From NCBI RefSeq assembly GCF_051061225.1, contig NZ_JBPFEB010000129.1, positions 87,294-119,293 of the forward strand: 32,000 bases of DNA. Reading direction: 5' to 3'. Below the pieces are notes generated by a model, which did no database searches, was not told the origin of the DNA, and worked only from the letters and a program-made list of their open reading frames with translations. This stretch comes from Methylocystis sp. (lineage in GTDB: Bacteria > Pseudomonadota > Alphaproteobacteria > Rhizobiales > Beijerinckiaceae). Positions 7,374-28,110 of this stretch are shown here, piece by piece (the stretch's first letter is position 1; each line of letters opens with the position of its first letter). The translations under genes were made by a program, and so were the position numbers.

Positions 7374-7416
7374 AGGAATTCATCGAAAAATTCGACGAAA
7401 GAGAGGCTCAGGAAAA

Positions 7417-7722
7417 ATGATGCACGTCAGCCGAACGTCGATCTTTGAGGCAGTCGAAAACACGGTCCATATAGTCGATCGCATGAAGTCGATTGCGGGG
7501 GCGATCATAGGCCCTGCTGCGATCGGCAAGACAACTGCGGTTGAGCATCTAGCAAACACGAAGAAAGGTATCAACTATATCAGAGTATCGGGAGCACAGG
7601 GAAGTTTCAAAGCCGGTTGTGCGCTACTTGCGTCGCATTTGGGCGTTCACTCGAATTTCGACAGCGCTGAGAAAATATGGACGAACTTGGAGGATCACTT
7701 CGAGTACTGGGCCCACGGGTAG
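7417..7722 (+). pseudogene. MuB-like / AAA+ transposition ATPase, truncated copy 1
   Basis: Walker A GPAAIGKTTAV. The N-terminus MHVSRTSIFEAVENTVHIVDRMKSIAG is typical of Mu-like phage B proteins. The ORF stops after 101 aa with no Walker B region. Confidence 0.5.
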
Positions 7723-10284: not shown

Positions 10285-11898
10285 ATGACCTCCAATGTTG
10301 GTGCGCGTGCGCTCGATGTCCGGCAAGCAAGCGCCGTCGAGGGCTATCTGAGCAAGGTGGCGGCCGCGGTGTCGACGACCGATCGCCCAATCGCAGTTCA
10401 TCGTTCGGAGAACGACCTGCACACGCCTGTCATTGTCGAACGTTCCAACGACGTATCCACTTATTTGAATAGCTCACTATTCGCGCTCCTGCCGCCGATT
10501 TATCCCGAATGGCTCGGCGATCGAAGCTTCAATGAGACCCATGGGGCGCGATTTGCTTACGTCGTGGGCGAAATGGCGCGTGGAATCACATCGGCAAAGA
10601 TGGTGATCGAAGCGGCGAGAGCCGGGTTTGTCGGTTTCTTCGGTAGCGCGGGACTCGAGCCGCCCCAGATCCGCACAGCGCTCGAGGAGATAAAGTGCGC
10701 GCTCGGTCCCGAAGCAACAGGCTGGGGCGCGAATCTCATTCACAATCCCGACCGGCCGGACATGGAGCGCGCGACGGTTGAGTTTTTTCTCGAGCACCGC
10801 GTAAAGCGCGTTTCGGCGTCAGCTTTCATGCGGCTATCGCATGATGTCGCGCACTATTCGATCGCGGGATTGGCGCGTGATTCAAATGGCCGGATCAGCC
10901 GAAGCACGCACGTCTTCGCGAAGGTGTCGCGGCCCGAGGTTGCGAGACAATTCATGTCGCCCGCTCCAAGCGACATGTTGAGGGAGCTTGTCGCGGCCGG
11001 ACGCATCACGTCGGAACAGTCGGAATTGGCACAATCAGCGCCTGTCGCAGAGGACGTCACGGTCGAAGGCGATTCCGGGGGACATACCGACAATCGTCCG
11101 ATTGCTTCGCTCTTTCCCGTCATCGCCAATCTGCGCGACGATCTCGCCGCGCGGCATGGCTACGTCCGCCCAATTCGTCTCGGCTTGGCTGGCGGGCTCG
11201 GCGCGCCATCTGCGATCGCCGCCGCGTTTCAGCAAGGCGCGGCCTATGTCATGACGGGCTCCATCAACCAGAGCGCGATAGAGGCCGGCGTTTCGAGCGC
11301 CGCGCGCGCGCTGTTGGCTCAAGCCGAAATCGCGGATGTCACAATGGCGCCCGCCGCCGATATGTTCGAACTGGGCGTCAAGGTGCAGGTGCTGAAGCGC
11401 GGCACGATGTTCGCGACAAGAGGCCAGAAGCTCTACGAGCTGTACCGTCGTTACGACTCGCTCGAGGCGCTTCCCGACAAGGAACGGCGCTGGCTGGAAA
11501 CCCAGGTGCTTCGAGAGTCGGTCTCGGATGCCTGGGCAAACTGCCGCGACTATCTCAGGCGCGCCCATCCGACGCAGATGGCGCGGGCGGAGCATGACGC
11601 GAAATTGCGTATGGCGCTGGTCTTCCGGCGCTACCTCTTCCTCGGCGCCGAATGGGCGCGCGACGGCGCCGACGACCGCCGCATCGACTATCAAATCTGG
11701 TGCGGCCCGGCGATGGGCGCTTTTAACGACTGGGTGCGGGGGAGCGCGCTCGAGCCTATCGGGAGTCGAACCGTCGCGGCGATTGGGCGCAATCTTCTCG
11801 AAGGCGCCGCGGCGATCACGCGCGCGCATCAATTGCGAATGGCCGGGGTGCATGTTCCGGCCGAGTTCTTCTCGATGCCGCCGAAACACATGGGTTAG
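10285..11898 (+). CDS. pfaD: PfaD-type enoyl reductase (FMN-dependent, NMO-fold trans-acting ER of PUFA/polyketide synthases)
   Basis: 537 aa. Contains FAYVVGEMARGITSAKMVIEAARAGFVGFFGSAGL, VEGDSGGHTDNRP and GLAGGLGAPSAIAAAF..GAAYVMTGSINQ, which are characteristic of PfaD. Start is trimmed to ATG 10285 (GGGAACGAGA upstream). The stop is 8 nt before the next gene. Confidence 0.85.
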   Translation: MTSNVGARALDVRQASAVEGYLSKVAAAVSTTDRPIAVHRSENDLHTPVIVERSNDVSTYLNSSLFALLPPIYPEWLGDRSFNETHGARFAYVVGEMARGITSAKMVIEAARAGFVGFFGSAGLEPPQIRTALEEIKCALGPEATGWGANLIHNPDRPDMERATVEFFLEHRVKRVSASAFMRLSHDVAHYSIAGLARDSNGRISRSTHVFAKVSRPEVARQFMSPAPSDMLRELVAAGRITSEQSELAQSAPVAEDVTVEGDSGGHTDNRPIASLFPVIANLRDDLAARHGYVRPIRLGLAGGLGAPSAIAAAFQQGAAYVMTGSINQSAIEAGVSSAARALLAQAEIADVTMAPAADMFELGVKVQVLKRGTMFATRGQKLYELYRRYDSLEALPDKERRWLETQVLRESVSDAWANCRDYLRRAHPTQMARAEHDAKLRMALVFRRYLFLGAEWARDGADDRRIDYQIWCGPAMGAFNDWVRGSALEPIGSRTVAAIGRNLLEGAAAITRAHQLRMAGVHVPAEFFSMPPKHMG

Positions 11899-11906
11899 GA
11901 CGAGCG

Positions 11907-14900
11907 ATGCGTGATTATCTGGAGCGACCGCCAATCGCAATCGTCGGGGTCGGCGCGATGTTTCCCGGTCGCGGCGGCACCGTGGGTTTCTGGCGCGATC
12001 TGGTCGAGGGGAGAGACGCCATCACCGAAGTTCCTCCGACGCATTGGGCGGTGGAGGATTATTACGACCCCGATCCGAAGGCGCCCGACAAGACCTATTG
12101 TAAGCGCGGCGCCTTCATTCCGGCCTTTCCGTTCGACCCCGTCGAGTTCGGCGTTCCGCCGAATGTCATCGAGGCGACGGACACATTTCAGTTGCTCGCG
12201 CTCCACGTCGCCAAGGAAGTGATCGCCGAGGCTGGCAAGGCGCGCTTTGGCCATATCGACCGCGAGCGCACCAGCGTGGTCCTCGGCGTGGCCGTCGGCT
12301 CCGAACTCATGACGGATATGTCGGCGCGCCTCTTTCGCCCTGTTTGGCTGAAGGCGTTGCGCGAGGCGGGCGTCGGCGAAACCAAGGCGCTCGCGATTTG
12401 CGATCGGATCAGCTCCCATTTCGGCGAATGGCGGGAAAGCACATTTCCTGGCCTGCTCGGCAATGTCGTCGCCGGCCGGATCACCAATCGGCTCGATATT
12501 GGAGGGACAAATTTCACCGCCGACGCCGCCTGCGCCAGTTCGCTCGCCGCCTTGCGTCACGCGGTTCAGGAGCTTTGGCTCGGCGAGTCGGATCTCGTCC
12601 TCACCGGCGGGTCCGACGCGCTGAACAATATTTTCATGTATATGTGCTTTTCAAAGACGCCCGCGATGTCGCCGACGGGTGACTGCCGTCCCTTCTCGGA
12701 AAGCGCCGACGGCACCATTCTCGGCGAGGGCGCGGGCATCTTCGCCCTGCGTCGTCTCGCGGACGCGGAACGCGACGGCGACACCATCTACGCCGTGATC
12801 CGCGGCGTCGGCGCGTCCTCCGACGGGCGCGCCAACAGCGTCTACGCGCCGCGCGCCGAGGGCCAGGCGCTCGCCTTGAAGCGCGCTTATCAACAAGCAG
12901 GATATTCGCCCCGCTCGGTCGAGCTTGTCGAGGCTCACGGAACGGGAACCCGCGCGGGCGACGCGGCTGAGTTCGCGGGCCTTTCCGAAGTCTTCAAGGC
13001 GGCGGACCCTTCGGGCCGCCAGTGGTGCGCCCTCGGCTCGATCAAATCGCAGATCGGCCACACGAAGTCTGCGGCGGGCGCGGCGGGGCTGATGAAGGCG
13101 GTTCTCGCGCTGCATCACAAGGTTTTGCCGCCGACATTGAAAGCCGAGCGCCCAAGCGCCAAGCTCGGCGTCGAGACCTCGCCCTTCTACCTGATCACAC
13201 AGGCCCGGCCATGGATTCATGCGCCGCTCGAGCCGCGCCGGGCTTCCGTCAGCTCCTTCGGTTTCGGGGGGAGCAACTTTCACGTGACGCTCGAGGAGTA
13301 TCACGGACCCGCGCCAAAGCCGGCGAGATTTCGCGCATTCGCCGCCGAACTCGTTCTGCTCTCGGGCGACAGCGCCGCGGCTCTCGTTGAAAGAGCGAGA
13401 TCCCTGGCGCAAAGCACGCAGCGCGACGACAGCCTGGCGCCTGCGGCCGCGAAAAGCTGCGGCGAATTCGACGCGACTGAGCCGCACCGCCTGGCTGTGG
13501 TCGCGTCGTCAGCGGCGGAGCTGCAATCGAGGATCGGCGAGGCTGTCCGCCAGATCGAAAAAGGAGCGGCCTTCGCGACTCCCGACGTCGCCTATGGGAG
13601 CGGCGCGCGCGCGACTGGCGCGATCGCCTTTCTTTTCTCCGGACAAGGCAGCCAATACCCGAATATGGGCGGCAGTCTCGCAATGGCCTTCGACGATGCT
13701 CGCAAGCCGTTTGACGACCTGGCCGGCGCTGCGCTCTTCGACGGCGAGTCGCTTCACGACATCGTCTTTCCAAAGTCAGCCGGTCGCGACGGGGACAGCG
13801 CTCGCCACGCTGCCGCGTTGACCGCAACGGAGAATGCGCAGCCCGCCATCGCCGCCGTCCAACTTGCGCATCTCGCGCTCTTGCGACGTCTTGGCGTCGC
13901 GCCGGACGCCGTCGCCGGGCATAGCTTCGGCGAAGTGATGGCGCTCCACGCGGCAGGCTGTTTCGACGCGCCGGCCGCCGTGCGACTGGCGCGTCAACGG
14001 GGCCTCGCGATGCGAGACGCCGCGCGCGGCGCCGAGGGCGCCATGCTGGCGGTGCAGCTCAATGTGGAGTCGGTTCGCGCCATGCTGGCGAAATCGAACT
14101 CGAAAGCGGTCATCGGAAACGATAACAGCCCCCGACAAGTGATCCTGTCGGGAAGCGTTGTCGACATCGAGATCGCCGCACGGGAGTTCGCCGCCGCGGG
14201 CGTCGACGTCAAGCAGCTTCCTGTCGCGACCGCCTTCCATTCGCCGATCGTCGCCGGCGCGGTCGACTCCATGCGACGCGCAATTGGAGCAATCGCCTTC
14301 GCCCCTCCATCCCTGCCTGTTTACGCCAACGCGACGGCGGCGCGTTATCCAGATCGAAGCGACGCGGCGGCGGAACAGCTCGCCCGCCAAATCGGCGAAG
14401 CCGTGCGGTTTCGGGAACTCGTCGAGACGATGTACCGCGACGGCGTCCGTACGTTCATCGAAATCGGGCCGGGTTCGATCCTGACGGGACTTGTCGGGCA
14501 GATTCTCGCCTCGAAAGAGCACCTCGCGCTTGCCCTCGACAACAAGCGCGCCGATGGCGTCGTGCAATTGCTGCGCTGCCTCGGCAGGCTCGCGGTCGCG
14601 GGCGTTCGCATGGACTTCACACTCTTGACGGAAGGCTGGCGCGGCTTGGCGGAGCCGCCTGTCCCCCCAAAGCACGCGGTTTGGCTTTGCGGCTCCAATC
14701 ACAACAAGCCGCGTCCCACGAAACTTGCGGACGAACTGACTGCGCCGGAGCCGGTCGGCGGCGTCGAGGCCGCCCGCGACCAGGCGCCCGCCCAAGGCGA
14801 TCAAGCCGACATGGCGGCCGCGCCGAGCCCGCTCGCCGCCGACGCGATCATGCCCTTGGAGCCGCTCGCGCGAGGCGCCGCTTCCGAACAGCGAGCGAAC

Positions 14901-17531
14901 CAATCGACGGCGCCCGCGCGCGCGCCCTTTGACCGAGAGGGGCCTTTGAGCGTGCTCCAACCCCAATCCGAGGAGCCTGAAATGACGAGTGAAGAGATGT
15001 TGGCGTTGCGCGCCATGCAGGAGACCGCCGCTTTGGAGCATCGGCGCTTTCTGGAGACGATCTCTCAAGCCCATCTGAGTTTCCTGCAGCTTTGCGACTC
15101 CGCGGTGGCGCAGGCGCGGGAGCTGCGCACCGATCGCAGTGTCACGCTGACAAGCCACAACGACGCGGCCGCATTGCGCATTGCAGGCCCGGCGGACGAC
15201 GCCCCGCGCCGCGCGGCAGGCGCTTCGGCGCCGCCCCTTGCGCTCCAACCACCGGCCGCGTCGGAGCGGCGCGCCGATATGGCGACCCCCGGCGCGCGGG
15301 ACCTCGAGGAGGTGGCGGCGCTCGCCGACACTCCGGTTCCAATCGTCGAACCGACGCCGCCGCTGGCGGCGCCAACGCCCGCCACGGATATGCGCCTCGC
15401 CGAGATCGTTCGCGAGATCGTCGCCGAGAAGACCGGCTATCCCGCCGAGATGCTCGACATCGACATGGAGCTGGAGGCCGAACTCGGCGTCGACTCCATC
15501 AAGCAGGTGGAGATTCTCGCGGCCTTGCGCGAGCGTCTGCCCGCTGTGCCGGAAATCACTCCCGCGCGGCTCGCCGAGTTGCGGAGCCTGCGCCAGATCG
15601 CCGCCGCGCTGGGGGAATCGAGCCCGCAGGATGGCCCGGCGACGGCGCTCGCCGCCACGCCGGTTCCAATTGCCGAACCGACGCCGCCGCTGGCGGCCCC
15701 AACGCCCGCCACGGATATGCGCCTGGCCGAGATCGTTCGCGAGATCGTCGCCGAGAAGACCGGCTATCCCGCCGAGATGCTTGAGTTCGACATGGAGCTG
15801 GAGGCCGAACTCGGCGTCGACTCGATCAAGCAGGTCGAGATCCTCGCGGCCTTGCGCGAGCGTCTGCCGGATATGCCGGAAATCGCCCCCGCGCGGCTCG
15901 CGGAGTTGCGCAGCCTGCGCCAGATCGCCGCCGCGCTGGCGCCCGCCGGGACGCCGAACGGACGCTCAGCGGCGTCGCTTGGGAGCGAAGCGGATAACCT
16001 CGCGCGCAAAAGCGGGGTTTACCGCCAGATCGTTGTGCTCGAGGACCGCGCGGCCAGTGGACGGCCGATGCCCGGCTTCGGCGCCCGCGCGCGCATCGCC
16101 GTGACGGAGGATCATGTCCGGCTGGCCGAGGCCCTGGTGAGCGAGCTCAGCCAGCATGGCTTCGAGGCCGGAGTCGGACTTGCCGCACGCGACGACGCCT
16201 CCATCGTGATTTCCACGGCCGGTCTCGCGGATCACCTCGATCCGGAGTCCGTCCATCTCGCGGCGCTTCGGGCGGCTCGCGCCCTCGCGCCCCGTGTTGA
16301 CGCGGGCGGCGCGGTATTCGTGACCCTGCAGGACACGGGCGGCCGCTTTGCGCGGGATCTGGAGTCAATCGAGCCGGCCTGGCGGAGCGGGTTGACGGGG
16401 CTGGTCAAAACCGCGCGGTTCGAATGGCCGGAGGCGGCGGTCAAGGCGATCGACGTCGAACGCGCCGGACAGTCCAACAAGGATGTGGCGCGGCGCGTCG
16501 TGGACGAACTGTTGCAGGGTGGCCCCGACATCGAGGTCGGTCTGCCGGCCAATGGCCAGCGGCTGGTTCCCGTCGTGAAAACCGCGCCCTTGGGCGAGAT
16601 CGCCGCGCCGCGCCTGCGCGACGGGCTTGTTGTCGTGGCAAGCGGCGGCGGCCGGGGGGTGACCGCGGAATCGATCATCCGTCTCGCCGGCGCCGCCCGG
16701 ATGCGCTTCGCATTGCTGGGCCGCACGGAGCTCGCCGAATGGCCAGCCGACATCGCGCCGGACGCGAAGCCCGCTGACATCCGCGCCATCCTCGCCAGAC
16801 AAGCGGCGGCGAATGGCCAAAAGCCCAGTCCGCGCGAAATTGGCCGAGTGACGGACCGGCTGATCGCCTCGCGCGAGATCAGGGAGACGATGAAGCGCAT
16901 CGAGGCGGCCGGATCCGAGGCGCTCTACAAGTCGGCCGACGTGGGCGACGAGGCCGCCGTCACACGCGCGCTAAACGAGATTCGCGGCGCCTGGGGGTCG
17001 ATCAACGGGCTGGCGCACGGGGCCGGACTCCTCGCCGACAAATTGATCAAGGACAAGACCGACGAGCAGGCTTCGCTGGTGTTTCGCGCCAAGGCGGGCG
17101 GCCTCGCCGCGCTCATCGGCGCGCTGAGGGACGATCCTCTGGAATTCGTCACCTTGTTCTCCTCGATCGCGGCGCGCTACGGCAATCCGGGCCAGGCGGA
17201 TTACGCGATGGCCAATGAAATCCTCAACCGTGTCGCATGGGTCCTGGCGAAGACGCGCCGCGCCTGCCGCGTGACCTCCATCAACTGGGGACCGTGGGAG
17301 GGCGGCATGGCGCACGACCTCATCCGCGCCCAATTTGCCGCGCGCGGCGTGCCGATCGCGCCGGTGAGCGTCGGCGCGGACGGCTTTGTGCGCGAGGTCG
17401 CGGGGGGCGACGGCCACGTCGAAATCGTCTTCGCCGGCCTCCCCGACACCGTCGAACGATCGAACGCGGCCGCACGTCCCGAATCCTATCCGCGCGTCGA
17501 CGCGATCGCATTGGGGAGCGCGAACCGATGA
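11907..17531 (+). CDS. pfaA: PfaA-like multidomain synthase: KS - malonyl-CoA:ACP transacylase - ACP - ACP - KR (no terminal DH)
   Basis: KS: DAACASS (Cys209, nt 12531-12533), EAHGTGT, GSIKSQIGHTKSAAG. MAT: FLFSGQGSQYPNMG, GHSFGE (Ser673, nt 13923-13925). Two ACPs: LGVDSIKQVEIL (Ser1197, Ser1306). KR: VVVASGGGRGVT Rossmann motif and FSSIAARYGNPGQADYAMANE. ATG 11907 has AGGA 6 nt upstream. Confidence 0.9.
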   Translation: MRDYLERPPIAIVGVGAMFPGRGGTVGFWRDLVEGRDAITEVPPTHWAVEDYYDPDPKAPDKTYCKRGAFIPAFPFDPVEFGVPPNVIEATDTFQLLALHVAKEVIAEAGKARFGHIDRERTSVVLGVAVGSELMTDMSARLFRPVWLKALREAGVGETKALAICDRISSHFGEWRESTFPGLLGNVVAGRITNRLDIGGTNFTADAACASSLAALRHAVQELWLGESDLVLTGGSDALNNIFMYMCFSKTPAMSPTGDCRPFSESADGTILGEGAGIFALRRLADAERDGDTIYAVIRGVGASSDGRANSVYAPRAEGQALALKRAYQQAGYSPRSVELVEAHGTGTRAGDAAEFAGLSEVFKAADPSGRQWCALGSIKSQIGHTKSAAGAAGLMKAVLALHHKVLPPTLKAERPSAKLGVETSPFYLITQARPWIHAPLEPRRASVSSFGFGGSNFHVTLEEYHGPAPKPARFRAFAAELVLLSGDSAAALVERARSLAQSTQRDDSLAPAAAKSCGEFDATEPHRLAVVASSAAELQSRIGEAVRQIEKGAAFATPDVAYGSGARATGAIAFLFSGQGSQYPNMGGSLAMAFDDARKPFDDLAGAALFDGESLHDIVFPKSAGRDGDSARHAAALTATENAQPAIAAVQLAHLALLRRLGVAPDAVAGHSFGEVMALHAAGCFDAPAAVRLARQRGLAMRDAARGAEGAMLAVQLNVESVRAMLAKSNSKAVIGNDNSPRQVILSGSVVDIEIAAREFAAAGVDVKQLPVATAFHSPIVAGAVDSMRRAIGAIAFAPPSLPVYANATAARYPDRSDAAAEQLARQIGEAVRFRELVETMYRDGVRTFIEIGPGSILTGLVGQILASKEHLALALDNKRADGVVQLLRCLGRLAVAGVRMDFTLLTEGWRGLAEPPVPPKHAVWLCGSNHNKPRPTKLADELTAPEPVGGVEAARDQAPAQGDQADMAAAPSPLAADAIMPLEPLARGAASEQRANQSTAPARAPFDREGPLSVLQPQSEEPEMTSEEMLALRAMQETAALEHRRFLETISQAHLSFLQLCDSAVAQARELRTDRSVTLTSHNDAAALRIAGPADDAPRRAAGASAPPLALQPPAASERRADMATPGARDLEEVAALADTPVPIVEPTPPLAAPTPATDMRLAEIVREIVAEKTGYPAEMLDIDMELEAELGVDSIKQVEILAALRERLPAVPEITPARLAELRSLRQIAAALGESSPQDGPATALAATPVPIAEPTPPLAAPTPATDMRLAEIVREIVAEKTGYPAEMLEFDMELEAELGVDSIKQVEILAALRERLPDMPEIAPARLAELRSLRQIAAALAPAGTPNGRSAASLGSEADNLARKSGVYRQIVVLEDRAASGRPMPGFGARARIAVTEDHVRLAEALVSELSQHGFEAGVGLAARDDASIVISTAGLADHLDPESVHLAALRAARALAPRVDAGGAVFVTLQDTGGRFARDLESIEPAWRSGLTGLVKTARFEWPEAAVKAIDVERAGQSNKDVARRVVDELLQGGPDIEVGLPANGQRLVPVVKTAPLGEIAAPRLRDGLVVVASGGGRGVTAESIIRLAGAARMRFALLGRTELAEWPADIAPDAKPADIRAILARQAAANGQKPSPREIGRVTDRLIASREIRETMKRIEAAGSEALYKSADVGDEAAVTRALNEIRGAWGSINGLAHGAGLLADKLIKDKTDEQASLVFRAKAGGLAALIGALRDDPLEFVTLFSSIAARYGNPGQADYAMANEILNRVAWVLAKTRRACRVTSINWGPWEGGMAHDLIRAQFAARGVPIAPVSVGADGFVREVAGGDGHVEIVFAGLPDTVERSNAAARPESYPRVDAIALGSANR
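15321..15939 (+). repeat. Tandem 327-bp duplication encoding the two ACP domains and their Pro/Ala linkers
   Basis: 15321-15612 and 15648-15939 align with only scattered mismatches, well above 90% identity by eye. The phosphopantetheine-Ser codons are 327 nt apart. Confidence 0.9.
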
Positions 17532-21517: not shown

Positions 21518-21560
21518 CCTGGGTCGGCGCGGCCTCGCCCATCCTCTCTGGGAGAAACTC

Positions 21561-24500
21561 ATGACCGTTTCGGTGAAACCCAATCCCAATATCGCCGGGA
21601 AGGCCGCCGAGCCCTTCCCCGAACTTTCGCCGACAGGCTTGCAGCTCACGCGAGAGCAATTGGAGTTTGCCGGGCGCGGCCCGCTTTCGGAAGTGTTCGG
21701 CCCGCTCTTCCGGCAACAGGACTCCTATGAGCGGGTGTGCCGTATGCCCTGCCCGCCCTTGCTCCTCGCCGATCGCGTGACCGGACTCGCCGGGCAGCCC
21801 GGCTCCATGGGCCAGGGGGTCATCTGGACGGAGACCGACGTCAAGGCCGACGCCTGGTATCTCCACAATGGCCGGATGCCGCCGGGCGTGACGATTGAGG
21901 CCGGGCAAGCCGACTTGATGCTGATCTCGTGGCTCGGCGTCGATTTCCACAACCGCTCCGAGCGGGTCTACCGCCTCCTCGGCTGCGAATTGACCTTTCA
22001 CACCTCCTACCTGCCGAAGGTCGGCGACACGATCCGATACCAGATCCACATTGACGGCCACGCGCAGATCGGAGGCACGCGGCTTTTCTTCTTCCGCTAC
22101 GACTCGCGCGTCGGCGATCAGCTTCTAAGTTCCGTGCGCAACGGCCAGGCGGGCTTTTTCGCCGACGCGGAGCTCGCGGCCTCGGCCGGCGTCCTGTGGA
22201 CTGCCGAAGACGACCGGCCCAAGGCGGACGCGCAACTCGACGCGCCGCCGCGCCTCACCAAAAAGCGTCGCTTCTCCACCGCCGAGATCGAAGCCTTCGC
22301 CCAGGGCGACGCCTATGCATGCTTCGGCGAAGGTTTCGAGATGGCCGCGCCGCACACGCGCACGCCCACGATCGGCAAGGGGCGCATGCGCCTTTTCGAC
22401 AGAGTCGTCGATTTCGATCCGCATGGCGGTCCCTGGGGTCGCGGCTATTTGCGCGCCGAATATGACGCGCCCGTGGATGCGTGGTTTTACGCCGGCCATT
22501 TCCATAATGATCCGTGCATGCCCGGCACGCTGATGGCCGAGGCGGCCGCGCAAGCGCTCGAATTCTATATGGCCGCGCTCGGATTCACGATCGACAGGGA
22601 TGGCTGGATTTTTGCTCCCGTGGCGGCCGAGGCTTACAAATTCATCTGTCGCGGGCAGGTCACGCCCGACCGCGCACATCTGATCACCTACGAAGTTTTC
22701 ATCGAGGAAATCATAGCCGGCGAGCGGCCGACCATCCACGCCGCCCTGCTGGCGCGCAGCGACGGCCACAAGGTGTTTCTCGCTCGCCGATTTGGCGTCC
22801 GTCTCGTCCCGGACTGGCCGTTGAACGAGCAACGACTGTTGGCGCCCAGCGTCGCGCCCAAAAGGATTGTCTCTCCGACGGGCGACGTGCCGGGCGATTT
22901 CGAGTCGCTGCTCGCGACCGCCACAGGCAAGCCATCCGACGCCTTCGGCGCGCTCTACAGGCCCTTCGACGAGGGACTGCGCGTCGCGCGGCTGCCGAGC
23001 CCGCCCTATCACTTCATGTCGGAAGTTGTTTGCGTGGATTGTCCGCCCGGCCTTCCCACTCCTGGCGGCAAAGTCGTCGTTGAATACCGCCCTCCAGCGG
23101 ACGCCTGGTATTTCCGTGACGGCGGCAATGGGGAGATGCCCTTCGCCGTGCTCATGGAGACCGTGTTGCAGCCTTGCGGCTGGCTTGCGTCTTACATGGG
23201 ATTCTCCAAGGCGTCGGTTTCGTTTCGCAATCTGGACGGAAGCCGCGCCACGATCCATCAGCCGGTGACGGCGCACACTGGCGCGTTGCGCACGACAGTG
23301 ACGTTCGAGCGCTACGCCGCCGCCGGGCCGACAACGATCGTGTTTTTTTCACTCGTCTGCGAGTGCAGCTCCGGCCGGGTCATGACGCTCGAGACCTCCT
23401 TCGGCTATTTTTCGAGCGACGCGCTCGCCAATCAGAAAGGTCTCCCGGTTTCGCCGGCGCATCGCGCGCGTCTCGAGGCGCCAAGCGAGATTTCCGACCA
23501 GCTCGACTCGGCCTCGCAACTCCGTCGCGAAGGGCGCCCGTCACTGCCGGGCGGACGCTTCAACCTCATCGATGGGGTGACGGGATTCTGGCCGCGCGGG
23601 GGAGCCGCAGGGCTCGGCGCCATTCGCGGGCGGCAGAAAATTGATCCGCGCGCCTGGTATTTCAAGGCGCATTTCTTCCAGGACCCCGTACAGCCGGGCT
23701 CGATTGGCCTCGAAAACTTGATCAGCCTGGCCAAGGCCGCCGCCTTGCTGCTGGAACTCGACACGGGCGTCGCCAACCCGGTCTTCGTGGCGCCCGCGCG
23801 TGAGCATGCGTTTCTTTGGAAGTTTCGCGGCCAGGTGCTGCCGACGTCTCGTGAAGTCACGAGCGAAGTCGAGATCCGCAGCGTCACCGTCGATAGCGGC
23901 GTCGTGACGCTGGTGGTTGACGGCGATCTGTGGGTCGATGGCGTACGCATCTATGAATTGCGGGATCTCGCGCTTCAAATTCGATCTGGCGCAAGGAATC
24001 TTGGCGGCCCGACCGGGCGCCGGGAAAAAAGCGTGGATATCGAGGCGCAGCCCTGGCTCTCCGGCCATTGCCCGACTTATGGCGCCCCCGCCTTTCCGCT
24101 TCTCGGCGTCGTTGGCGCGCTGGCGACGACGGCGCGCGCCGGGGGACCACGCAAAAAGCTGACCGCCCTGAGCAATTTGGAACTCTACCGATGGATGCGT
24201 CTCGACCAGGGTCCCATCGCGCTGTGCTTTGAAACGCTGCGCATCGACGGCGACAACCTGTGGACCGACATCCGCCTCGACATGGATGAAGGCGGAGGCC
24301 CGCAGAAACTCCGCGTCGGTCGCGTGATCGAGACCTACGCGGAGGATTATTTGCCAGCCCCGGCGCTCTGGCCGGGCCCCATTGGCGGCGCGCCATTCGA
24401 TCCTTACGAGCAGGGGGGCCTGTTTCACACCGAAGCGTTCATGCGCGCCGAAGGTTTCATCCGGGACAGCACGTGCTCGGCCTATGACGTCGACGTCGAA

Positions 24501-25157
24501 AGCGCGCTTGACGCCGCCCAGGGCGATATCTCCCTTCTCCTCGACAGCACTGCGCATGGCGTGCCTTATGGAACGCTCGCGGTGTGGTTCGCTGTTCCGC
24601 AAAGCGGCGTCTGCAGCCTGCCGCGACGCATCGACACCTTGCAATTTTACGCGAGCCTGCCGGCCTCTGGCCGCTTGCGCGTCGTCACCAGGGCTTTGGA
24701 CATGCAATCCGCGCGCACGCCGCGCTGCGAGATCCAGGTCCAGCACGACGGTCGCGTTCTCTTCCAATATCTGCTCGCCACCGCGCTCTTGCCAGCTTTC
24801 GGCGCCAGCATGGCCGCCGAACATTGGCGCGACTTCCTCCTGCGGGGCCGTTGGGCGCCCGGCGGTCATTGCGCGGAAATCGAAGCAAATCGCACCCGAT
24901 TCTCGATCGAGCGGTTGAAAGCGCTCAACTGGTTCCCCGGAACACTGGAACGTCTCTACGGGGCGTCCGGCGATCCCGGGGCCATCGTCGAGGCGGTCGC
25001 GGTCAAGGACCACTTCGCCCACAAGTTCAAAGTCCATCCGAGCCGCGTCGAGATTGGCGGCCAAACGGTTCGCGTGGCGGATCAGGCGCTCTCATTGCAC
25101 GACCTCGTCGCGCGGCGCTGGATCACCGCGGATATTTTCGAAATCGCGGATCGATAA
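21561..25157 (+). CDS. Multi-hotdog dehydratase: two PfaC-type DH/FabA-like modules plus a C-terminal PKS-type DH-like module
   Basis: ATG 21561 follows GGGAGA. Module 1: AWYLHNGRMPPGVTIEAGQADLMLISWLG, then the FabA motif GHFHNDPCMPGTL (His313). Module 2: AWYFRDGGNGEMPFAVLMETVLQPCGW, then AHFFQDPVQPGSIG (His704). C-terminus: WLSGHCPTYGAPAFP (His836) and LLLDSTAHG (Asp995). Confidence 0.8.
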   Translation: MTVSVKPNPNIAGKAAEPFPELSPTGLQLTREQLEFAGRGPLSEVFGPLFRQQDSYERVCRMPCPPLLLADRVTGLAGQPGSMGQGVIWTETDVKADAWYLHNGRMPPGVTIEAGQADLMLISWLGVDFHNRSERVYRLLGCELTFHTSYLPKVGDTIRYQIHIDGHAQIGGTRLFFFRYDSRVGDQLLSSVRNGQAGFFADAELAASAGVLWTAEDDRPKADAQLDAPPRLTKKRRFSTAEIEAFAQGDAYACFGEGFEMAAPHTRTPTIGKGRMRLFDRVVDFDPHGGPWGRGYLRAEYDAPVDAWFYAGHFHNDPCMPGTLMAEAAAQALEFYMAALGFTIDRDGWIFAPVAAEAYKFICRGQVTPDRAHLITYEVFIEEIIAGERPTIHAALLARSDGHKVFLARRFGVRLVPDWPLNEQRLLAPSVAPKRIVSPTGDVPGDFESLLATATGKPSDAFGALYRPFDEGLRVARLPSPPYHFMSEVVCVDCPPGLPTPGGKVVVEYRPPADAWYFRDGGNGEMPFAVLMETVLQPCGWLASYMGFSKASVSFRNLDGSRATIHQPVTAHTGALRTTVTFERYAAAGPTTIVFFSLVCECSSGRVMTLETSFGYFSSDALANQKGLPVSPAHRARLEAPSEISDQLDSASQLRREGRPSLPGGRFNLIDGVTGFWPRGGAAGLGAIRGRQKIDPRAWYFKAHFFQDPVQPGSIGLENLISLAKAAALLLELDTGVANPVFVAPAREHAFLWKFRGQVLPTSREVTSEVEIRSVTVDSGVVTLVVDGDLWVDGVRIYELRDLALQIRSGARNLGGPTGRREKSVDIEAQPWLSGHCPTYGAPAFPLLGVVGALATTARAGGPRKKLTALSNLELYRWMRLDQGPIALCFETLRIDGDNLWTDIRLDMDEGGGPQKLRVGRVIETYAEDYLPAPALWPGPIGGAPFDPYEQGGLFHTEAFMRAEGFIRDSTCSAYDVDVESALDAAQGDISLLLDSTAHGVPYGTLAVWFAVPQSGVCSLPRRIDTLQFYASLPASGRLRVVTRALDMQSARTPRCEIQVQHDGRVLFQYLLATALLPAFGASMAAEHWRDFLLRGRWAPGGHCAEIEANRTRFSIERLKALNWFPGTLERLYGASGDPGAIVEAVAVKDHFAHKFKVHPSRVEIGGQTVRVADQALSLHDLVARRWITADIFEIADR

Positions 25158-25179
25158 GCCATCCAGAAGGGCGCAAGCG

Positions 25180-26637
25180 ATGATTGAGAACCAGATCGCA
25201 GTCGCGAAGAAGCACCCGGACATCGGGGATCGCATCTGTATCGTCGGCGCCGGCGCCGCAGGCGTTTACATGGCTTATCTGTTGAAGCAGCGAGGATATA
25301 AAAACGTCACGGTGCTCGAAAAGGAAAACAGGATCGGCGGACAATGCCATACGAAGGTTTTTCATGGCGTTCCACATGAGCTTGGCGCCAGCATGGGGAA
25401 CGCGTCGTATGAAGATCTGGTTCGTCTCAATGAAGACCTGAAACTCGACGAATTGGTGCAAAATCCGGACGAACGGAACATCCACGTCTTTCAAGGCGAG
25501 GTCCATCTGCTCGAAGATCTCGTTTTGGGGCTTCACAACCAGGCGGGGTTGACGCAAACTCTGCTCAGACCCTGGAAAAGGCTGCAGTTTTTCCAAAGTT
25601 GTCTGAAATATATCCGGATACATGAAAAAATTTTCGGGACCTCGAAATATGTCTACGGCAGCCGTCCAACCGTCAATGACGTCAACATGACGTTTCACGC
25701 ATTTCTGAAAAAACACCATCTGCTCAATTTGACGAATTTCTTCAGATTTCTGTTCTCCACTCAATACGGCCACCTCGAAACAACTCCAGCTTTGTACGGG
25801 CTCTGGTGGTGCACCCCGAAAATGGTCAGAGCGGTCATAGAACCGATGGGCAGGAAGCGCCCGACATTCCTGTTCAGGCTAAAAAGCGGCTATCAGCCAT
25901 TCTTTGAGAAACTGGCGCTCAAGAGCGAGGCTGACATTCTCCTCGGCTATCAGGTCGACTCCATCGAGCGCAAACAAACGATCCGGGTGAACGGGAAACA
26001 TCAATCCAGGCCCCGAACGCTGGAGTTTGATTTCCTCATCATGGCGTGCTCGGCCAAACAGGCGCTTGCGTGTCTCGATTGCACGGAGGCAGAGAGGGAT
26101 ATCTTCTCGAAGCTGGAATATACCTATCCGGCGATGACTGTTTTCACATCAAAGACCAATACGAGTCTCCTCCAGGGCGCCGGTTGTATCTGGTTCGATA
26201 TGGCGATCCCCGGAGCCTCTCCCCACAAGGGCGTGGTCAATCTCGTCAAGGAGCTTGCCAACTATTACAATATCGAAGCTGTCAATGACCAGAACGTCCC
26301 TGAGAGAGTTTATGTGACGTTCCAACATTCAGAGCGCGGAGAAGGACCGGGGAACGAAGAGGAGCTCAACCGTGCTCTCATAGCGGATCTCGTCCGCAAG
26401 GGTTTTGGAGAGCCCGAAATCCTCTATCAATGTCGTTGGCGCTATTTTCCCGCCTTCCGTCAGGACGCGATAGATGAGGGCTATCCCTGGAAGATCACGG
26501 AAATGCAGGGCGAGAACAACACCTGGCATATCGGAAGCTCTGCTTGCTTCGAGTCGGTCAAGGACGTGATGAACTATAATCAGATGCTCGTCGCCACGTT
26601 GCTTCCCAAAGGCGAATGCGTTGACGGTCAGAGATGA
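25180..26637 (+). CDS. FAD-dependent amine-oxidase-fold protein, polyenoic fatty-acid isomerase (PAI)-like, low-GC copy
   Basis: 485 aa. Dinucleotide-binding RICIVGAGAAGVYMAYLLKQRGYKNVTVLEKENRIGGQCHT. Also FSTQYGHLETTPALYGLWW and a C-terminal WRYFPAFRQDAIDEGYPWKITEMQGENNTWHIGSS. These resemble my recollection of P. acnes PAI (IIGAGPAGL..ILERTDHVGGKCHS; FGYGH..PAAYVL; WYYFPHV...EGMQGRRNTFYAGE). Start is trimmed to ATG 25180. Confidence 0.6.
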   Translation: MIENQIAVAKKHPDIGDRICIVGAGAAGVYMAYLLKQRGYKNVTVLEKENRIGGQCHTKVFHGVPHELGASMGNASYEDLVRLNEDLKLDELVQNPDERNIHVFQGEVHLLEDLVLGLHNQAGLTQTLLRPWKRLQFFQSCLKYIRIHEKIFGTSKYVYGSRPTVNDVNMTFHAFLKKHHLLNLTNFFRFLFSTQYGHLETTPALYGLWWCTPKMVRAVIEPMGRKRPTFLFRLKSGYQPFFEKLALKSEADILLGYQVDSIERKQTIRVNGKHQSRPRTLEFDFLIMACSAKQALACLDCTEAERDIFSKLEYTYPAMTVFTSKTNTSLLQGAGCIWFDMAIPGASPHKGVVNLVKELANYYNIEAVNDQNVPERVYVTFQHSERGEGPGNEEELNRALIADLVRKGFGEPEILYQCRWRYFPAFRQDAIDEGYPWKITEMQGENNTWHIGSSACFESVKDVMNYNQMLVATLLPKGECVDGQR

Positions 26638-26808
26638 CCGCCCCTTAGTTTGACGCGACAGGGCATCCTCGTCCGGGAGGCGAAGCCCTACGCTTCTCTG
26701 GCTTTTATCCGCATGGAAGGCCGCACGTCCCGATCTCTTGAGCATGACAGACCGGAGCGAGCGCTGAGCGCGGAAATAGCAGACCACTGGCGTTGAAAAG
26801 GCAAACAG

Positions 26809-28110
26809 ATGATGGCCGCGAGGATGCAGGGAGACTCCAGAGAATGTGACGTCGTCGTCATTGGCGGCGGCTTCGCGGGGCTGTCAATATCGTTGCTTCT
26901 GAAACAAAGAGGCCTGAAGTCCGTCATCCTCGAAAAGTCGGAGCGCGTCGGCGGCAAGTCGCGGACGCTCAACCTGCATGGCAATGTCATCGAACTTGGA
27001 ACGTGCTTCACCGCGCGTGATTATCGCGATGTCGTTGCGCTCGCAGAGCAATATGGCGTCCGCACCCAGCCGCTGGGTCGCGCCAGCGCAAGCCCGGAGA
27101 GCGTGCTGGGCGCTCTTTACACCAAGCGCATTGCAACGCGTTTTAACAGTTTATCGCGAATGATCGCGATCATGAGCAGCCTTCAACGGTACGCGCGAGA
27201 GCGGCGAAAGGCGCTCGCCCGTTTCGACGCGCGCGTCGCTTCGGAATACGCCGCGCTGGCCATGCCGGCCCTGGACTGGCTGAGACGGCATCGCTGTCAA
27301 GCGCTCGAGCCGGTCTTCCTCGGCGTGGGCGACGTCTATGGATATGGGCCAATGAAGACGATGCCAGCGCTCTACGCCCTGCGTTGGGTGACGCCCGAAA
27401 TGGTCATCACCGCCTTCACCTCGACAGCGAAACGCCTCGACGTCGGATTTGGCGAATTGGCGGAGCGTATCGCGGAGGAGACGGAGATCTGGCGATCTCA
27501 GACGCTCACCCACGCGTCCCGAACTCCAAATGGCGCATGGTCGCTGTCCACGCCAGGCAATTCGTTCAACGCCCGGCATGTGGTTGTTGCTTGCGCGCCC
27601 AAATCCTCCGAGCTCCTCGAGCTGTTCGATCCGACACGGCGTCGAATCATCGAGAACCATGTCGTCTCCACTCCTTATTTCTCAGTGTTGGTGAAGGCGG
27701 CCCATTGGTTTACGAACGCTCGTCGCGCCTTTCTCCGAGCCGGCGACCACAGAGACCAGCTCATGATCGCGCGCAATGATGGGCCGGCTGATGACGGCGG
27801 AAGTTATTACGTTTGCTTTCTCTGCCCCACGATCGCCGACACGTCACATATCGAAGCAATCCTCGATCGCGCCATCGCCCGGGACGGCGGCGTTTTGCGG
27901 GAGATTGTCGAGATTCGGGGCTGGGGCGACTACATGTCCCGTCTCGATGCGGATGCGATCGGTTGCGGGAGCTACGCCACCCTGGAGGATCTTCAGGGAG
28001 CCGAAAATGTCTGGCTATCGAATTCAATCCTCGCGCATGAAAACTGGCGCGATCTCCTTGCCCTGAACAAGAGGATCACGGACGCGATCTGTGCGGCGTC
28101 GCAAGCATAG
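26809..28110 (+). CDS. FAD-dependent amine-oxidase-fold protein, PAI-like, paralogue 2
   Basis: 433 aa. Contains CDVVVIGGGFAGLSISLLLKQRGLKSVILEKSERVGGKSRT, VYGYGPMKTMPALYALRWVTPEMV and LEDLQGAENVWLSNS. It is colinear with the previous protein. The start could also be the internal Met at 26824. Confidence 0.6.
   Translation: MMAARMQGDSRECDVVVIGGGFAGLSISLLLKQRGLKSVILEKSERVGGKSRTLNLHGNVIELGTCFTARDYRDVVALAEQYGVRTQPLGRASASPESVLGALYTKRIATRFNSLSRMIAIMSSLQRYARERRKALARFDARVASEYAALAMPALDWLRRHRCQALEPVFLGVGDVYGYGPMKTMPALYALRWVTPEMVITAFTSTAKRLDVGFGELAERIAEETEIWRSQTLTHASRTPNGAWSLSTPGNSFNARHVVVACAPKSSELLELFDPTRRRIIENHVVSTPYFSVLVKAAHWFTNARRAFLRAGDHRDQLMIARNDGPADDGGSYYVCFLCPTIADTSHIEAILDRAIARDGGVLREIVEIRGWGDYMSRLDADAIGCGSYATLEDLQGAENVWLSNSILAHENWRDLLALNKRITDAICAASQA

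Follow-up and report, generated by a model that had tools for sequence, protein, structure and literature searches.

A putative myxobacterial-type PUFA synthase locus in Methylocystis sp. with two neighboring genes encoding relatives of a fatty-acid double-bond isomerase

The PUFA synthases of myxobacteria are encoded as Pfa1/Pfa2/Pfa3, with the enoyl reductase (ER) first, an AT after the KS-CLF pair, and a PKS-like DH downstream of two FabA-type DHs (PMC6731297). In the AA/DTA type of Minicystis rosea, Pfa3 has the domain order KS2-CLF-AT2-DH2-DH3-DH4-AGPAT (Gemperlein et al. 2019, PMC6731297). A PPTase encoded at a separate locus is normal for the myxobacterial systems (PMC8436480). In the classification of pfa-like clusters by Shulse and Allen (2011), Type L has pfaD at the 5' end and a fused pfaBC with DH2 and AT, and it is found in Sorangium, Plesiocystis, Streptomyces coelicolor and Saccharophagus; separate DH genes and flavoprotein genes are not mentioned for any type in the text of that study (PMC3098273).

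Here we describe a locus of six co-directional genes within a 32,000-nucleotide stretch of DNA from Methylocystis sp. (the window). The genes and the other features discussed below are as follows.

10285..11898, + strand: ER, a Pfa1/PfaD-type enoyl reductase, 537 aa (TIGR02814 pfaD_fam, NMO, FabD_helical_ins)
11907..17531, + strand: Pfa2/PfaA-like KS-MAT-ACP-ACP-KR protein, 1874 aa (TIGR02813, Pfam)
15316..15939, + strand: ACP-encoding tandem repeat with a 327-nt unit, 1.9 copies, 93% identical (Tandem Repeats Finder)
17528..21517, + strand: KS-CLF-AT protein, the N-terminal two thirds of a Pfa3-like protein, 1329 aa (Pfam)
21412..21561, + strand: linker with the reading-frame change that splits the Pfa3-like ORF (homology ends, open frames)
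21561..25157, + strand: DH protein, the C-terminal third of a Pfa3-like protein, 1198 aa (FabA matches, PKS-DH profile)
25180..26637, + strand: FP1, a PAI-like FAD protein, 485 aa (Amino_oxidase and NAD_binding_8 in Pfam, 2b9w match)
26675..26698, + strand: weak hairpin resembling a terminator, with a T-rich tail, located in the gap of 171 nt between FP1 and FP2 (consensus scan)
26809..28110, + strand: FP2, a PAI-like FAD protein, 433 aa (Amino_oxidase and NAD_binding_8 in Pfam, 2b9w match)

A base-by-base check gave spacings of 8 nt, a 4-nt ATGA overlap, 43 nt, 22 nt and 171 nt along the six genes, so that the coordinates and gaps are exactly those of the first-pass annotation, which had proposed a pfa-type secondary-lipid operon. 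That assignment was correct, as the PfaA and PfaD HMMs both score above their cut-offs, and all of the domain calls were upheld by HMMs (Pfam, TIGR/NCBIfam). Judged from its sequence, the set of genes 1-4 appears to be a complete, iterative PUFA synthase of the myxobacterial Pfa1/Pfa2/Pfa3 type, and we infer that its product is a PUFA.

The ER belongs to the PfaD family (TIGR02814 pfaD_fam, 595 bits against a cut-off of 449, aa 73-514) and contains the Pfam domains NMO and FabD_helical_ins. The PfaA-like protein matches TIGR02813 omega_3_PfaA with 1288 bits (cut-off 1010), and Pfam places in it a ketoacyl-synt domain at aa 9-412, an Acyl_transf_1 (MAT) domain at 575-871, two PP-binding domains and a KR domain at 1653-1798. 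The active-site residues read from the translation are Cys209 of KS1, Ser673 of the MAT (GHSFG), and Ser1197 and Ser1306 of the ACPs. As had been noted earlier, the protein stops right after the KR, with its end ~75 aa past the KR match, and no PKS-DH (DH1) was found there with Pfam. The count of two ACPs also holds, but not its reading as a departure from the norm, as two is the commonest number among the relatives (23 of 53 loci). The number could be under-assembled, because an independent Logan contig (L081) begins within the ACP repeat.

The KS-CLF-AT protein contains two ketoacyl-synt domains and an Acyl_transf_1 domain at aa 951-1167 (Pfam); its PfaB_fam score of 83 bits is below the cut-off of 144. 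In an internal alignment Cys193 of KS2 aligns with Glu625 of the CLF, so the CLF is without an active-site Cys. The AT2 motif is GLSMG (Ser962), the PfaB-type Tyr/Leu variant as described (PMC12895367). The fusion of the AT to KS-CLF, which had been listed among the unusual features of the locus, is present as in myxobacteria and is thus a published Pfa3 feature rather than a new one.

Downstream of the AT the Pfa3-like ORF is interrupted. Homology in the KS-CLF-AT frame reaches ~aa 1241-1295, homology to the DH region begins no more than ~14 codons from the ATG at 21561, and both frames are open across 21411-21517. A Shine-Dalgarno-like GGGAGA motif lies 7 nt upstream of this ATG. The same frame break is present in L081, which differs from the window by 1 mismatch in 13196 nt. 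Among the relatives, the Pfa3-like protein is one fused ORF in ~60 of 66. The separate DH protein is the product of a frame change in an interdomain linker of a Pfa3-like ORF. The DH gene is indeed a separate gene, but the thraustochytrid-like design that had been suggested for it does not hold: thraustochytrid subunit C (DH-DH-ER) likewise carries its DH block on its own polypeptide, whereas the DH polypeptide in the window is without an ER and its split reflects a local frame break, not shared subunit ancestry.

In the DH protein, two FabA matches are strong (aa 274-408 and aa 662-800, with 119 and 114 bits) and one is weak (aa 63-171, 22 bits), so that what were three FabA matches resolve into one weak N-terminal hot-dog and two strong FabA domains. 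The protein consists of two FabA-type DH/isomerase units, each with a hot-dog before it, and a C-terminal PKS-type DH; the FabA-type active-site residues are His313 and His704. The C-terminal region, aa 820-1198 (nt 24018-25154), is without a Pfam match. A profile of this region built from 24 sequences (A1) matched PKS DH domains, with CurH (3kg7) first at E 1.6e-10, followed by the DHs of fluvirucin, PksJ, borrelidin, CurK and CurF. This region has the invariant residues His836 and Asp995/His999 as well as a 'FHGPAFQ'-like motif. The C-terminal ~380 aa are thus a PKS-type DH in the position of M. rosea DH4, and because of this domain the DH that is absent after the KR is relocated rather than lost.

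When the locus is compared with the myxobacterial Pfa1-3 systems, and especially with that of M. rosea (AA/DTA), the order ER; KS-MAT-ACPn-KR; KS-CLF-AT-DH(FabA)-DH(FabA)-DH4(PKS-like) is the same. In both, the AT is integrated past the CLF and there is no adjacent PPTase, and the relatives from Polyangiaceae and Nannocystaceae are 39-44% identical across the DH region. The differences are that the window protein corresponding to Pfa2 lacks the PKS-type DH1 after the KR, that Pfa3, a single polypeptide in myxobacteria, is split into two ORFs and lacks the AGPAT, and that the window has two ACPs and two PAI-like flavoprotein genes after the synthase genes. In the scheme of Shulse and Allen (2011) the cluster is most likely Type L, as judged from the published description. 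It shares with Type L the pfaD gene at the 5' end, the joining of the pfaB and pfaC functions, and the spread over Deltaproteobacteria, Actinobacteria and Proteobacteria (PMC3098273). The marine pfaABCDE systems (Shewanella, Photobacterium, Moritella) have the same inventory of KS, MAT, tandem ACP, KR, PKS-DH, KS-CLF, AT, two FabA-DHs and ER, but the gene order and fusion pattern differ, and the window has 2 ACPs rather than 4-6, its PKS-DH on another protein, no separate PfaB for the AT and no adjacent pfaE.

A scan found 336 relatives of the DH protein across Alphaproteobacteria, Myxococcota, Actinobacteria and Gemmatimonadota, and the same gene order is kept in the relatives that were retrieved, which come from many phyla; even the closest genome of the species-representative set is only ~50-58% identical. 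The first-pass annotation called the partitioning of the domains non-canonical, which is right relative to marine pfaABCDE but not as a claim of a new layout, since this is the known myxobacterial Pfa1/Pfa2/Pfa3 order and is seen in many phyla. A characterized cluster with the same gene content, which would have refuted the proposed novelty of the locus, was not found.

No AGPAT (PlsC-type acyltransferase) domain was found: the DH protein stops where its PKS-DH stops, and tblastn with the acyltransferases of relatives as queries gave no match in the window. The 32-kb window also contains no homologue of the PPTases (PfaE-type) encoded beside related clusters and no FeeM-like gene. Prophage debris lies beside the cluster, as had been reported, with a Mu gpT gene upstream that is split over two frames (8185-8873), and the alphaproteobacterial setting proposed for the cluster is plausible. 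The Pfa3 split, the absent AGPAT and this debris could be signs of cluster decay, and it is conceivable, but highly improbable, that the cluster is a decaying remnant that makes nothing. Such a remnant would fit a frame break in a protein that is otherwise mostly one ORF, a window that lacks AGPAT, PPTase and FeeM-like genes, and upstream prophage fragments that are both frameshifted and duplicated. However, the synthase ORFs (~15.6 kb) are uninterrupted apart from the Pfa3 break, and every catalytic residue read from the translations is intact. The break falls in a linker of low conservation, and a Shine-Dalgarno-like motif precedes the new start. Additionally, the AGPAT is missing from the closest alphaproteobacterial relatives as well (L001-L004 and L007), PPTases are commonly encoded elsewhere, and split PKS subunits are often functional.

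The two remaining genes were correctly called flavoproteins in the first-pass annotation, which left them uninterpreted, yet it is these genes that carry the novelty of the locus. The best PDB sequence match of FP1, at E 5e-21 and spanning the full length (aa 17-472 against 7-420), is 2b9w, confirmed to be the P. acnes PUFA isomerase (PAI). PAI turns linoleic acid into 10E,12Z-CLA by abstracting a hydride and adding it back, a step mediated by FAD, and to our knowledge it is the only fatty-acid double-bond isomerase with a solved structure. It is also the top sequence match of FP2, and a profile of the FP2 family matched 2b9w over its full length (positions 1-413, E 2.8e-25), whereas the match of this profile to all other flavin amine oxidases is limited to ~80 N-terminal residues. 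AF2 models of FP1 (pLDDT 82.8) and FP2 (pLDDT 87.4) both gave 2b9w as the top Foldseek match, with E 1e-29 and a TM of 0.84 for FP1 (the runner-up has 1.5e-20) and E 5.5e-26 and a TM of 0.79/0.81 for FP2. FP1, FP2 and PAI have in common an N-terminal GxGxxG FAD motif and a 'GYG...PA.Y.L' segment, and both proteins align with PAI over the full length and have it as their top fold match (TM 0.79-0.84). The identity to PAI is 18-22%, and FP1 and FP2 are distant paralogues of each other (24% identity). FP1 and FP2 are thus specific relatives of PAI in both sequence and fold. PAI is a lone gene whose product acts on exogenous linoleic acid, whereas FP1 and FP2 are two paralogues in an operon for de novo PUFA synthesis.

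Proteins of the same fold also include amine oxidases, desaturases (CrtI) and enzymes of other chemistry. It is thus possible, though unlikely, that the synthase is as described above and that FP1 and FP2 are redox enzymes (CrtI-like desaturases or oxidases) that would introduce further double bonds into the acyl chain or oxidize it, leading to a polyene or an oxidized lipid. Both proteins are in the Amino_oxidase superfamily and have weak N-terminal NCBIfam matches to the CrtI/CrtD, HpnE and protoporphyrinogen oxidase families, and protoporphyrinogen oxidase and a carotenoid desaturase are among the good fold matches. The CrtI-type matches are confined to the N-terminal dinucleotide-binding motif, however, whereas PAI alone is matched over its full length by sequence and is also the best fold match for both proteins. 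Isomerase chemistry is therefore predicted for FP1 and FP2, from sequence and modeled structure, rather than oxidase or desaturase chemistry.

Several observations were made on the wider family. Distant PAI-like domains occur fused to carrier-protein and thioesterase domains, so some PAI-like relatives may act on tethered rather than free acyl chains. Fusions of distant PAI-like domains to catalase-like haem domains are also seen; they point to oxidative lipid chemistry within the wider family and would agree with a redox role. The FP1 family includes eukaryotic algal members, such as a red-algal (Gracilaria) 'amine oxidase'.

The two flavoprotein genes differ in their distribution. There are 8 informative genomic contexts for genes of the FP2 clade, and in 7 of them (the window, L085, L086, the P0044 contig, L089, L090 and L091) the gene adjoins those of a pfa-type synthase. 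The FP2 relatives in the six contexts other than the window are 43-54% identical and lie beside pfaD/pfaA/pfaC or downstream of Pfa3, and the linked contexts span two synthase architectures and a GC content from 0.58 to 0.72. At 50% identity the clade amounts to only ~8 clusters in a set of 1.84 billion representatives, and for a clade of this size it is very unlikely that the adjacency to pfa genes arose by chance. A search of 5.8 billion proteins gave only 38 relatives of FP1. The nearest of these lie in tandem flavoprotein trios, with a patatin lipase and an Aas-like fusion of acyltransferase and acyl-ACP synthetase on the flanks, a setting that points to fatty-acid release and re-esterification, and no pfa genes were found beside FP1 relatives in the contexts examined. 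The GC content of FP1 is 0.52 as compared to 0.63-0.68 in the synthase genes, and its GC3 is 0.65 as compared to 0.72-0.80 in the synthase genes and 0.85-0.88 in flanking housekeeping genes. FP1 is probably a later insertion, and it could be a passenger gene because of its deviant GC and because its relatives are unlinked to pfa genes. Homologues of FP1 and FP2 were found in 0 of the 80 closest synthase loci of species-representative genomes; the pairing of flavoproteins with the synthase is thus rare and not general to the synthase type. No paper on the pairing of a pfa synthase with PAI-like flavoproteins was found in the literature.

The 171-nt gap and the hairpin that precede FP2 make its co-transcription with the upstream genes putative, and the hairpin hints that FP2 may have a separate transcription start, although terminator-like sites in the region are in no excess (17 found, 18.5 expected from shuffles). 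This gap, the composition of FP1, the lack of pfa genes beside its relatives and the absence of such genes from the related loci would also fit flavoproteins that are functionally unrelated neighbors of the cluster. The latter would then supply the membrane with a long-chain PUFA of the ordinary kind or with a secondary lipid akin to it, as the many related clusters presumably do, with FP1 (and perhaps FP2) acquired by horizontal transfer along with the mobile debris. We consider this quite unlikely, since the FP2 clade adjoins pfa-type genes across varied architectures and GC contents, FP1 is separated from the DH gene by just 22 nt, and the neighborhoods of the FP1 relatives are of a lipid-remodeling kind.

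The reading that we favor, tentatively and at a little less than even probability, has the synthase making a PUFA whose double bonds are then conjugated by the PAI-like FP1 and FP2. In this pathway, a PPTase encoded outside the window would activate both ACPs, the MAT would load malonyl, KS1 and KS2/CLF would extend the chain, and the KR would reduce each beta-keto group. The saturated stretches would come from the C-terminal PKS-type DH of the DH protein together with the PfaD-type ER, and the two FabA-type DH/isomerase domains would install methylene-interrupted cis double bonds. The finished chain would be handed off by the PfaB-type AT (GLSMG). As there is no AGPAT, the chain is probably freed as the acid or passed to another carrier, not placed directly on lysophosphatidic acid. 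Once the polyenoic acid is released, FP1 and FP2 would move its double bonds into conjugation, with a hydride abstracted and added back in an FAD-mediated step, and if they act in sequence, in whichever order, a conjugated triene or tetraene could result. Another enzyme is known to convert a PUFA to a conjugated triene, the chemistry that is proposed here for FP1 and FP2, and it is likened to them by its reaction only (PMC7700177). Of the two accessory genes, FP2 would be the ancestral one in this synthase type, and FP1 would have come later from a low-GC donor, entering between the DH gene and FP2.

The cluster had been put forward as a candidate undescribed lipid or polyene pathway, a proposal that stands and that the likeness to PAI and the linkage of FP2 to pfa genes sharpen to conjugated polyenoic fatty acids. 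Together, the synthase and the PAI-like genes point to a route, so far undescribed, by which bacteria would make conjugated polyunsaturated lipids.

The cluster at 10285-28110 joins the genes of a polyunsaturated fatty acid (PUFA) synthase to two flavoprotein genes, FP1 and FP2. Both flavoproteins are homologous to PAI, the P. acnes polyunsaturated fatty acid isomerase (PDB entry 2b9w), and FP2 relatives are linked to PUFA synthase (pfa) genes. The first-pass annotation had described six co-directional genes separated by 8 nt, a 4-nt ATGA overlap, 43, 22, and 171 nt, and the same open reading frames and spacing were recovered:

10285-11898, plus strand: ER (gene 1), identified with the PfaD-family HMM
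11907-17531, plus strand: KS-MAT-ACP2-KR (gene 2), identified with the PfaA HMM and domain matches
17528-21517, plus strand: KS-CLF-AT (gene 3), two KS-like stretches and an acyltransferase
21561-25157, plus strand: DH protein (gene 4), FabA-like domains
25180-26637, plus strand: FP1 (gene 5), flavin amine-oxidase superfamily
26809-28110, plus strand: FP2 (gene 6), flavin amine-oxidase superfamily

Every domain call in that annotation was borne out by HMM searches, and genes 1-4 contain the full domain set of a PUFA synthase. Gene 1 scored 595 bits against the curated PfaD-family cut-off of 449, and gene 2 scored 1288 bits against the PfaA cut-off of 1010 with KS, MAT, two PP-binding, and KR domains inside; the acyltransferase of gene 3 is PfaB-like at 83 bits, which is below the model cut-off of 144. 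The catalytic residues are complete in the translations (KS1 Cys209, MAT GHSFG, ACP serines 1197 and 1306, KS2 Cys193, FabA-type His313 and His704). Glu625 replaces the Cys in the second KS-like domain of gene 3, as expected if this domain acts as the chain-length factor. The AT2 motif of gene 3 is GLSMG, the Tyr/Leu variant that a 2026 structural study described as typical of PfaB-type terminal acyltransferases (PMC12895367). Two ACPs is the commonest count in the related clade (23 of 53 loci). Short-read assemblies typically break or collapse at near-identical repeats, and the ACP count of gene 2 could be under-assembled because the ACP-coding repeat units (15316-15939) share 93% DNA identity and the near-identical Logan contig L081 starts inside the repeat.

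Of the three FabA stretches reported by Pfam in the DH protein, those at aa 274-408 and 662-800 are strong FabA domains, and the one at aa 63-171 (22 bits) is a weak hot-dog near the N-terminus; pairing of a pseudo-hot-dog with a FabA unit is the usual PfaC arrangement. The last 380 residues had no Pfam match, and this C-terminal region was aligned with 23 relatives for a profile search. The alignment contains an invariant His in 'DHCPTY..P', an 'FHGPAFQ' motif, and an invariant Asp/His in 'LLDA..H', and its profile matched the solved PKS DH domains of CurH (E 1.6e-10) and then fluvirucin, PksJ, borrelidin, CurK, and CurF. Marine PfaA carries a PKS-type DH after the KR, and the profile match to PKS dehydratases indicates that this domain has not been lost from the cluster but relocated to the C-terminus of the DH protein. 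The same domain was named DH4 in the AA/DTA-type Pfa3 of Minicystis rosea by Gemperlein et al. (PMC6731297).

A scan of one genome per species returned 336 relatives of the DH protein with a top identity of only ~50%. The best 80 of the 336 include Alphaproteobacteria (Azospirillum, Henriciella, Hyphomonas, Hoeflea, Denitrobaculum, Tepidamorphus) and many Myxococcota as well as Mycobacterium, Mycolicibacter, Kitasatospora, Gemmatimonadota, and more. The order ER, PfaA-like, KS-CLF-AT, DH region is kept in the related loci and is the published order of the myxobacterial subunits Pfa1, Pfa2, and Pfa3; the cluster probably belongs to Type L of Shulse and Allen. The partitioning of the genes had been called non-canonical, and a separate DH protein is indeed real, but it does not hold as a subunit design. 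A stop-to-stop frame check determined that the KS-CLF-AT and DH regions form a single open reading frame in ~60 of 66 loci, often running into a ~340-aa PlsC-type acyltransferase domain (AGPAT). This result refutes a stand-alone DH protein with a separate acyltransferase gene as a widespread layout. In the window a frame change separates these two regions: the upstream frame shows homology to approximately codon 1241-1295, homology in the downstream frame starts within ~14 codons of the ATG at 21561, which is preceded by a GGGAGA motif 7 nt upstream, and both frames are open over 21411-21517. The identical frame break occurs in L081, an independent Logan assembly with 1 mismatch in 13,196 nt, so the split is real in the data. 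It is local and derived, and it falls in a linker of poor conservation. That the cluster is decaying remains a rival explanation, to be weighed with the split on one side and the intact synthase active sites on the other. A thraustochytrid-type subunit design is out, as the DH protein has no ER and the split is local, and so is a zeamine-like polyamine pathway, as aminotransferase, NRPS, and PKS genes are all lacking from the cluster.

Neither the cluster nor its closest alphaproteobacterial relatives have the AGPAT domain. The synthase core is a divergent member of a known, widespread family, and its split Pfa3 and its lack of DH1 and AGPAT are variants of a known theme. In seven Henriciella/Hyphomonadaceae loci (L028, L031, L032, L034, L035, L039, L043) an AGPAT-less Pfa3-like gene is followed by genes for a FeeM-like N-acyl amino acid synthase (GNAT) and a PPTase, which suggests that synthases of this type supply the formation of N-acyl amino acid lipids in those genomes. 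At another locus, L005, a cytochrome P450 gene follows the Pfa3-like gene instead.

The cluster limits, 10285 and 28110, are set by the upstream and downstream flanking genes. The surroundings contain the following:

Upstream flank: histidine-kinase fragment, PG-binding protein, DUF1491, ComEC (minus strand), DUF2336, LexA (minus strand)
7412-7643 and 9203-9419: 5' part of an AAA_22 (MuB-like) gene fragment, present twice in direct orientation, ~230 nt, 86-89% identical, bracketing the gpT fragments
8185-8873: Mu-like gpT head gene in two overlapping frames, 8185-8577 (profile 67-185) and 8445-8873 (profile 177-273)
Downstream flank, opposite strand: L,D-transpeptidase, accA

The upstream flank genes are followed by ~4 kb of low-GC, poorly coding DNA with Mu-like debris. 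Its gpT gene is a frameshifted pseudogene that lacks the N-terminus, and the AAA_22 copies could be what is left of two Mu-like prophage insertions or could stem from an internal duplication. The ~1 kb 5' of the ER gene (9264-10284) has no open reading frame of at least 100 aa and no Rfam match; it may be the promoter/regulatory region of the operon or further prophage debris. A sigma-70-like site lies upstream of the ER gene at 9677-9706, and the sites found in the promoter/terminator scan were not above those in shuffles. tRNA and Rfam scans of the window gave no tRNA genes and no Rfam matches, and no PPTase, PlsC-type acyltransferase, thioesterase, or regulator is encoded within the 32 kb.

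Both flavoproteins resemble PAI over their whole length. The best match of FP1 among all PDB sequences is 2b9w (E 5e-21, whole length), which is also the best PDB match of FP2 (E 5e-12). A profile of the FP2 family aligns with 2b9w end to end (E 2.8e-25), and all matches of other flavin amine oxidases to this profile are confined to the ~80-residue dinucleotide-binding part. The AlphaFold models agree: 2b9w is the top Foldseek match of FP1 (pLDDT 82.8; E 1e-29, TM 0.84; next match 1.5e-20) and of FP2 (pLDDT 87.4; E 5.5e-26, TM 0.79/0.81; next match 9e-23, TM 0.70). FP1 and FP2 are distant paralogues of each other (24% identity, E 8e-20). That they are oxidases or desaturases remains a rival explanation; they belong to the flavin amine-oxidase superfamily, while the sequence and structure comparisons both place PAI first. 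The third homologue search, run with the FP1 family alignment, yielded no new relatives, and none of its matches was named as a fatty-acid isomerase. Distant full-length PAI-like domains were also observed inside large fusion proteins (P0138, P0169, P0178, P0186, P0188, P0111, P0115, P0144) with the pattern catalase-like haem domain, PAI-like flavoprotein, PP-binding carrier, and thioesterase or BD-FAE hydrolase. This pattern suggests carrier-tethered, oxylipin-like chemistry, of which we know of no description.

Both flavoprotein families are very rare. Among 5.8 billion proteins, a word-indexed search retrieved 38 FP1 relatives and 12 FP2 relatives, and in an exhaustive HMMER scan of 1.84 billion representatives only ~8 clusters exceeded 280 bits with the FP2 profile before a sharp drop. 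A metagenome scan with a 10-sequence FP2 alignment gave no match, and a second metagenome scan for FP2 relatives gave one locus, L090. The contexts of the FP2 relatives are as follows (P, protein match; L, locus):

P0045 / L085: 47% identity to FP2; divergent from a pfaD-like ER gene, then pfaA- and pfaC-like genes
P0046 / L086: 43% identity; divergent from a pfaD-like ER gene, then pfaA-/pfaC-like genes
P0044 contig: 47% identity; divergent from a pfaD-like ER gene
P0042 / L089: 54% identity; directly 3', same strand, of a Pfa3-type ORF ending in DH4-AGPAT
L090: 54% identity; directly 3', same strand, of a Pfa3-type ORF ending in DH4-AGPAT
P0040 / L091: 53% identity; directly 3', same strand, of a Pfa3-type ORF ending in DH4-AGPAT
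L087, 10001-12689: two tandem copies, ~35-36% and 32% identity; no pfa genes within 10 kb
L088: 55% identity; cut by the contig end, uninformative

Seven of the eight informative FP2-clade contexts, the window included, are linked to pfa genes, although several of these contigs derive from metagenomes that resemble each other, and the lineages may not be fully independent. The seven linked contexts cover two synthase architectures and a locus GC of 0.58-0.72. None of 80 related synthase loci in representative genomes has an FP homologue, and the pairing is specific but uncommon. L087 shows that paired PAI-like genes also occur without a synthase; its tandem genes adjoin nitrile-hydratase-alpha-like small ORFs and a ParDE toxin-antitoxin pair.

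That the flavoproteins are unrelated passengers remains a further rival explanation, for FP1 in particular; the recurrent pfa linkage of the FP2 clade bears against it, and the composition of FP1 bears in its favor. FP1 has a GC of 0.52 and a GC3 of 0.65, compared with 0.63-0.68 and 0.72-0.80 for the synthase genes; GC3 is 0.71 in FP2 and 0.85-0.88 in the flanking housekeeping genes. FP1 looks like a later arrival, and the whole cluster may have been acquired horizontally with FP1 as the latest layer. An FP2-like gene directly follows Pfa3 in L089, L090, and L091, and in the window FP1 separates FP2 from the DH gene. This is most simply explained by FP2 being the older partner, with FP1 inserted between the two genes. 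The nearest relatives of FP1 (47-49% identity) are on contigs with a GC of 0.31-0.34 (L082 8376-12984 and L083 4688-9317), where the middle one of three tandem amine-oxidase-like genes (~540, 471, and 515 aa) is the FP1 relative. These trios have no pfa genes within 10 kb and are flanked by genes for a cNMP-regulated patatin lipase, an acyltransferase/AMP-binding (Aas-like) fusion, another FAD protein, and a 3-beta-HSD/epimerase-like reductase. This neighborhood suggests fatty-acid release, modification, and re-esterification. It is a candidate for a cluster that remodels or isomerises phospholipid fatty acids. Further FP1 relatives come from eukaryotes: a sea anemone, transcriptomes of diatoms and dinoflagellates, and the red alga Gracilaria.

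The synthase would be expected to make a long-chain, methylene-interrupted polyenoic acyl chain, the length and double-bond number of which cannot be read from the sequence. Since AGPAT and thioesterase are absent, the PfaB-type acyltransferase would likely off-load the chain; whether such domains carry out transfer or hydrolysis is still debated (PMC12895367). FP1 and FP2 would then shift double bonds of the chain into conjugation, for which the models are PAI, which conjugates the double bonds of linoleate, and the red-algal polyenoic fatty acid isomerase, which conjugates AA and EPA. PAI reportedly acts on free fatty acids with no net redox input (Liavonchanka 2006). The homology of FP1 and FP2 to PAI and the linkage of the FP2 clade to pfa genes are established; isomerase chemistry is what we infer for the two proteins. 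Tentatively, and as less likely than not, the operon would encode a bacterial pathway dedicated to making conjugated polyenoic fatty acids, in which a PUFA synthase is followed by two sequential PAI-like isomerases and the FP2 clade is dedicated to the synthase. Co-transcription of FP2 with the synthase genes is an assumption in such operon readings. Through this pathway a skipped cis-polyene would become a lipid with a conjugated triene or tetraene, which might serve in UV absorption, as an antioxidant, or in signalling.

Interest in PUFA synthases comes from nutrition and from their use as a model of programmed iterative polyketide chemistry. To our knowledge, their tailoring has so far been mainly off-loading (AGPAT, Ole, NRPS/PKS hybrids), and making conjugated linoleic, EPA-, or DHA-type acids currently depends on the single characterised PAI. 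A literature search gave no description of pfa genes paired with PAI-like, 'amine oxidase', or isomerase/conjugated-lipid genes; the closest statement is that a pfa-like operon in Nostoc PCC 7524 acquired two FAD oxidoreductases of unknown role (PMC13291983). The present comparison shows the synthase clade to be a platform with interchangeable downstream partners, including AGPAT, the FeeM-like N-acyl-amino-acid synthase, P450, and PAI-like enzymes. A family of flavin isomerases associated with PUFA synthases would be a new kind of post-assembly modification and would give the first gene-level account of bacterial conjugated PUFA from de novo synthesis. It would also offer new enzymes for making conjugated acids of the linoleic, EPA, or DHA type, which matter for nutrition and pharmacology. 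If the conjugated-fatty-acid pathway is true, the FP2 clade would represent tailoring isomerases dedicated to the synthase, a family not recognised before and present in several uncultured lineages, and bacteria would have a counterpart of the route that red algae run through polyenoic fatty acid isomerase.
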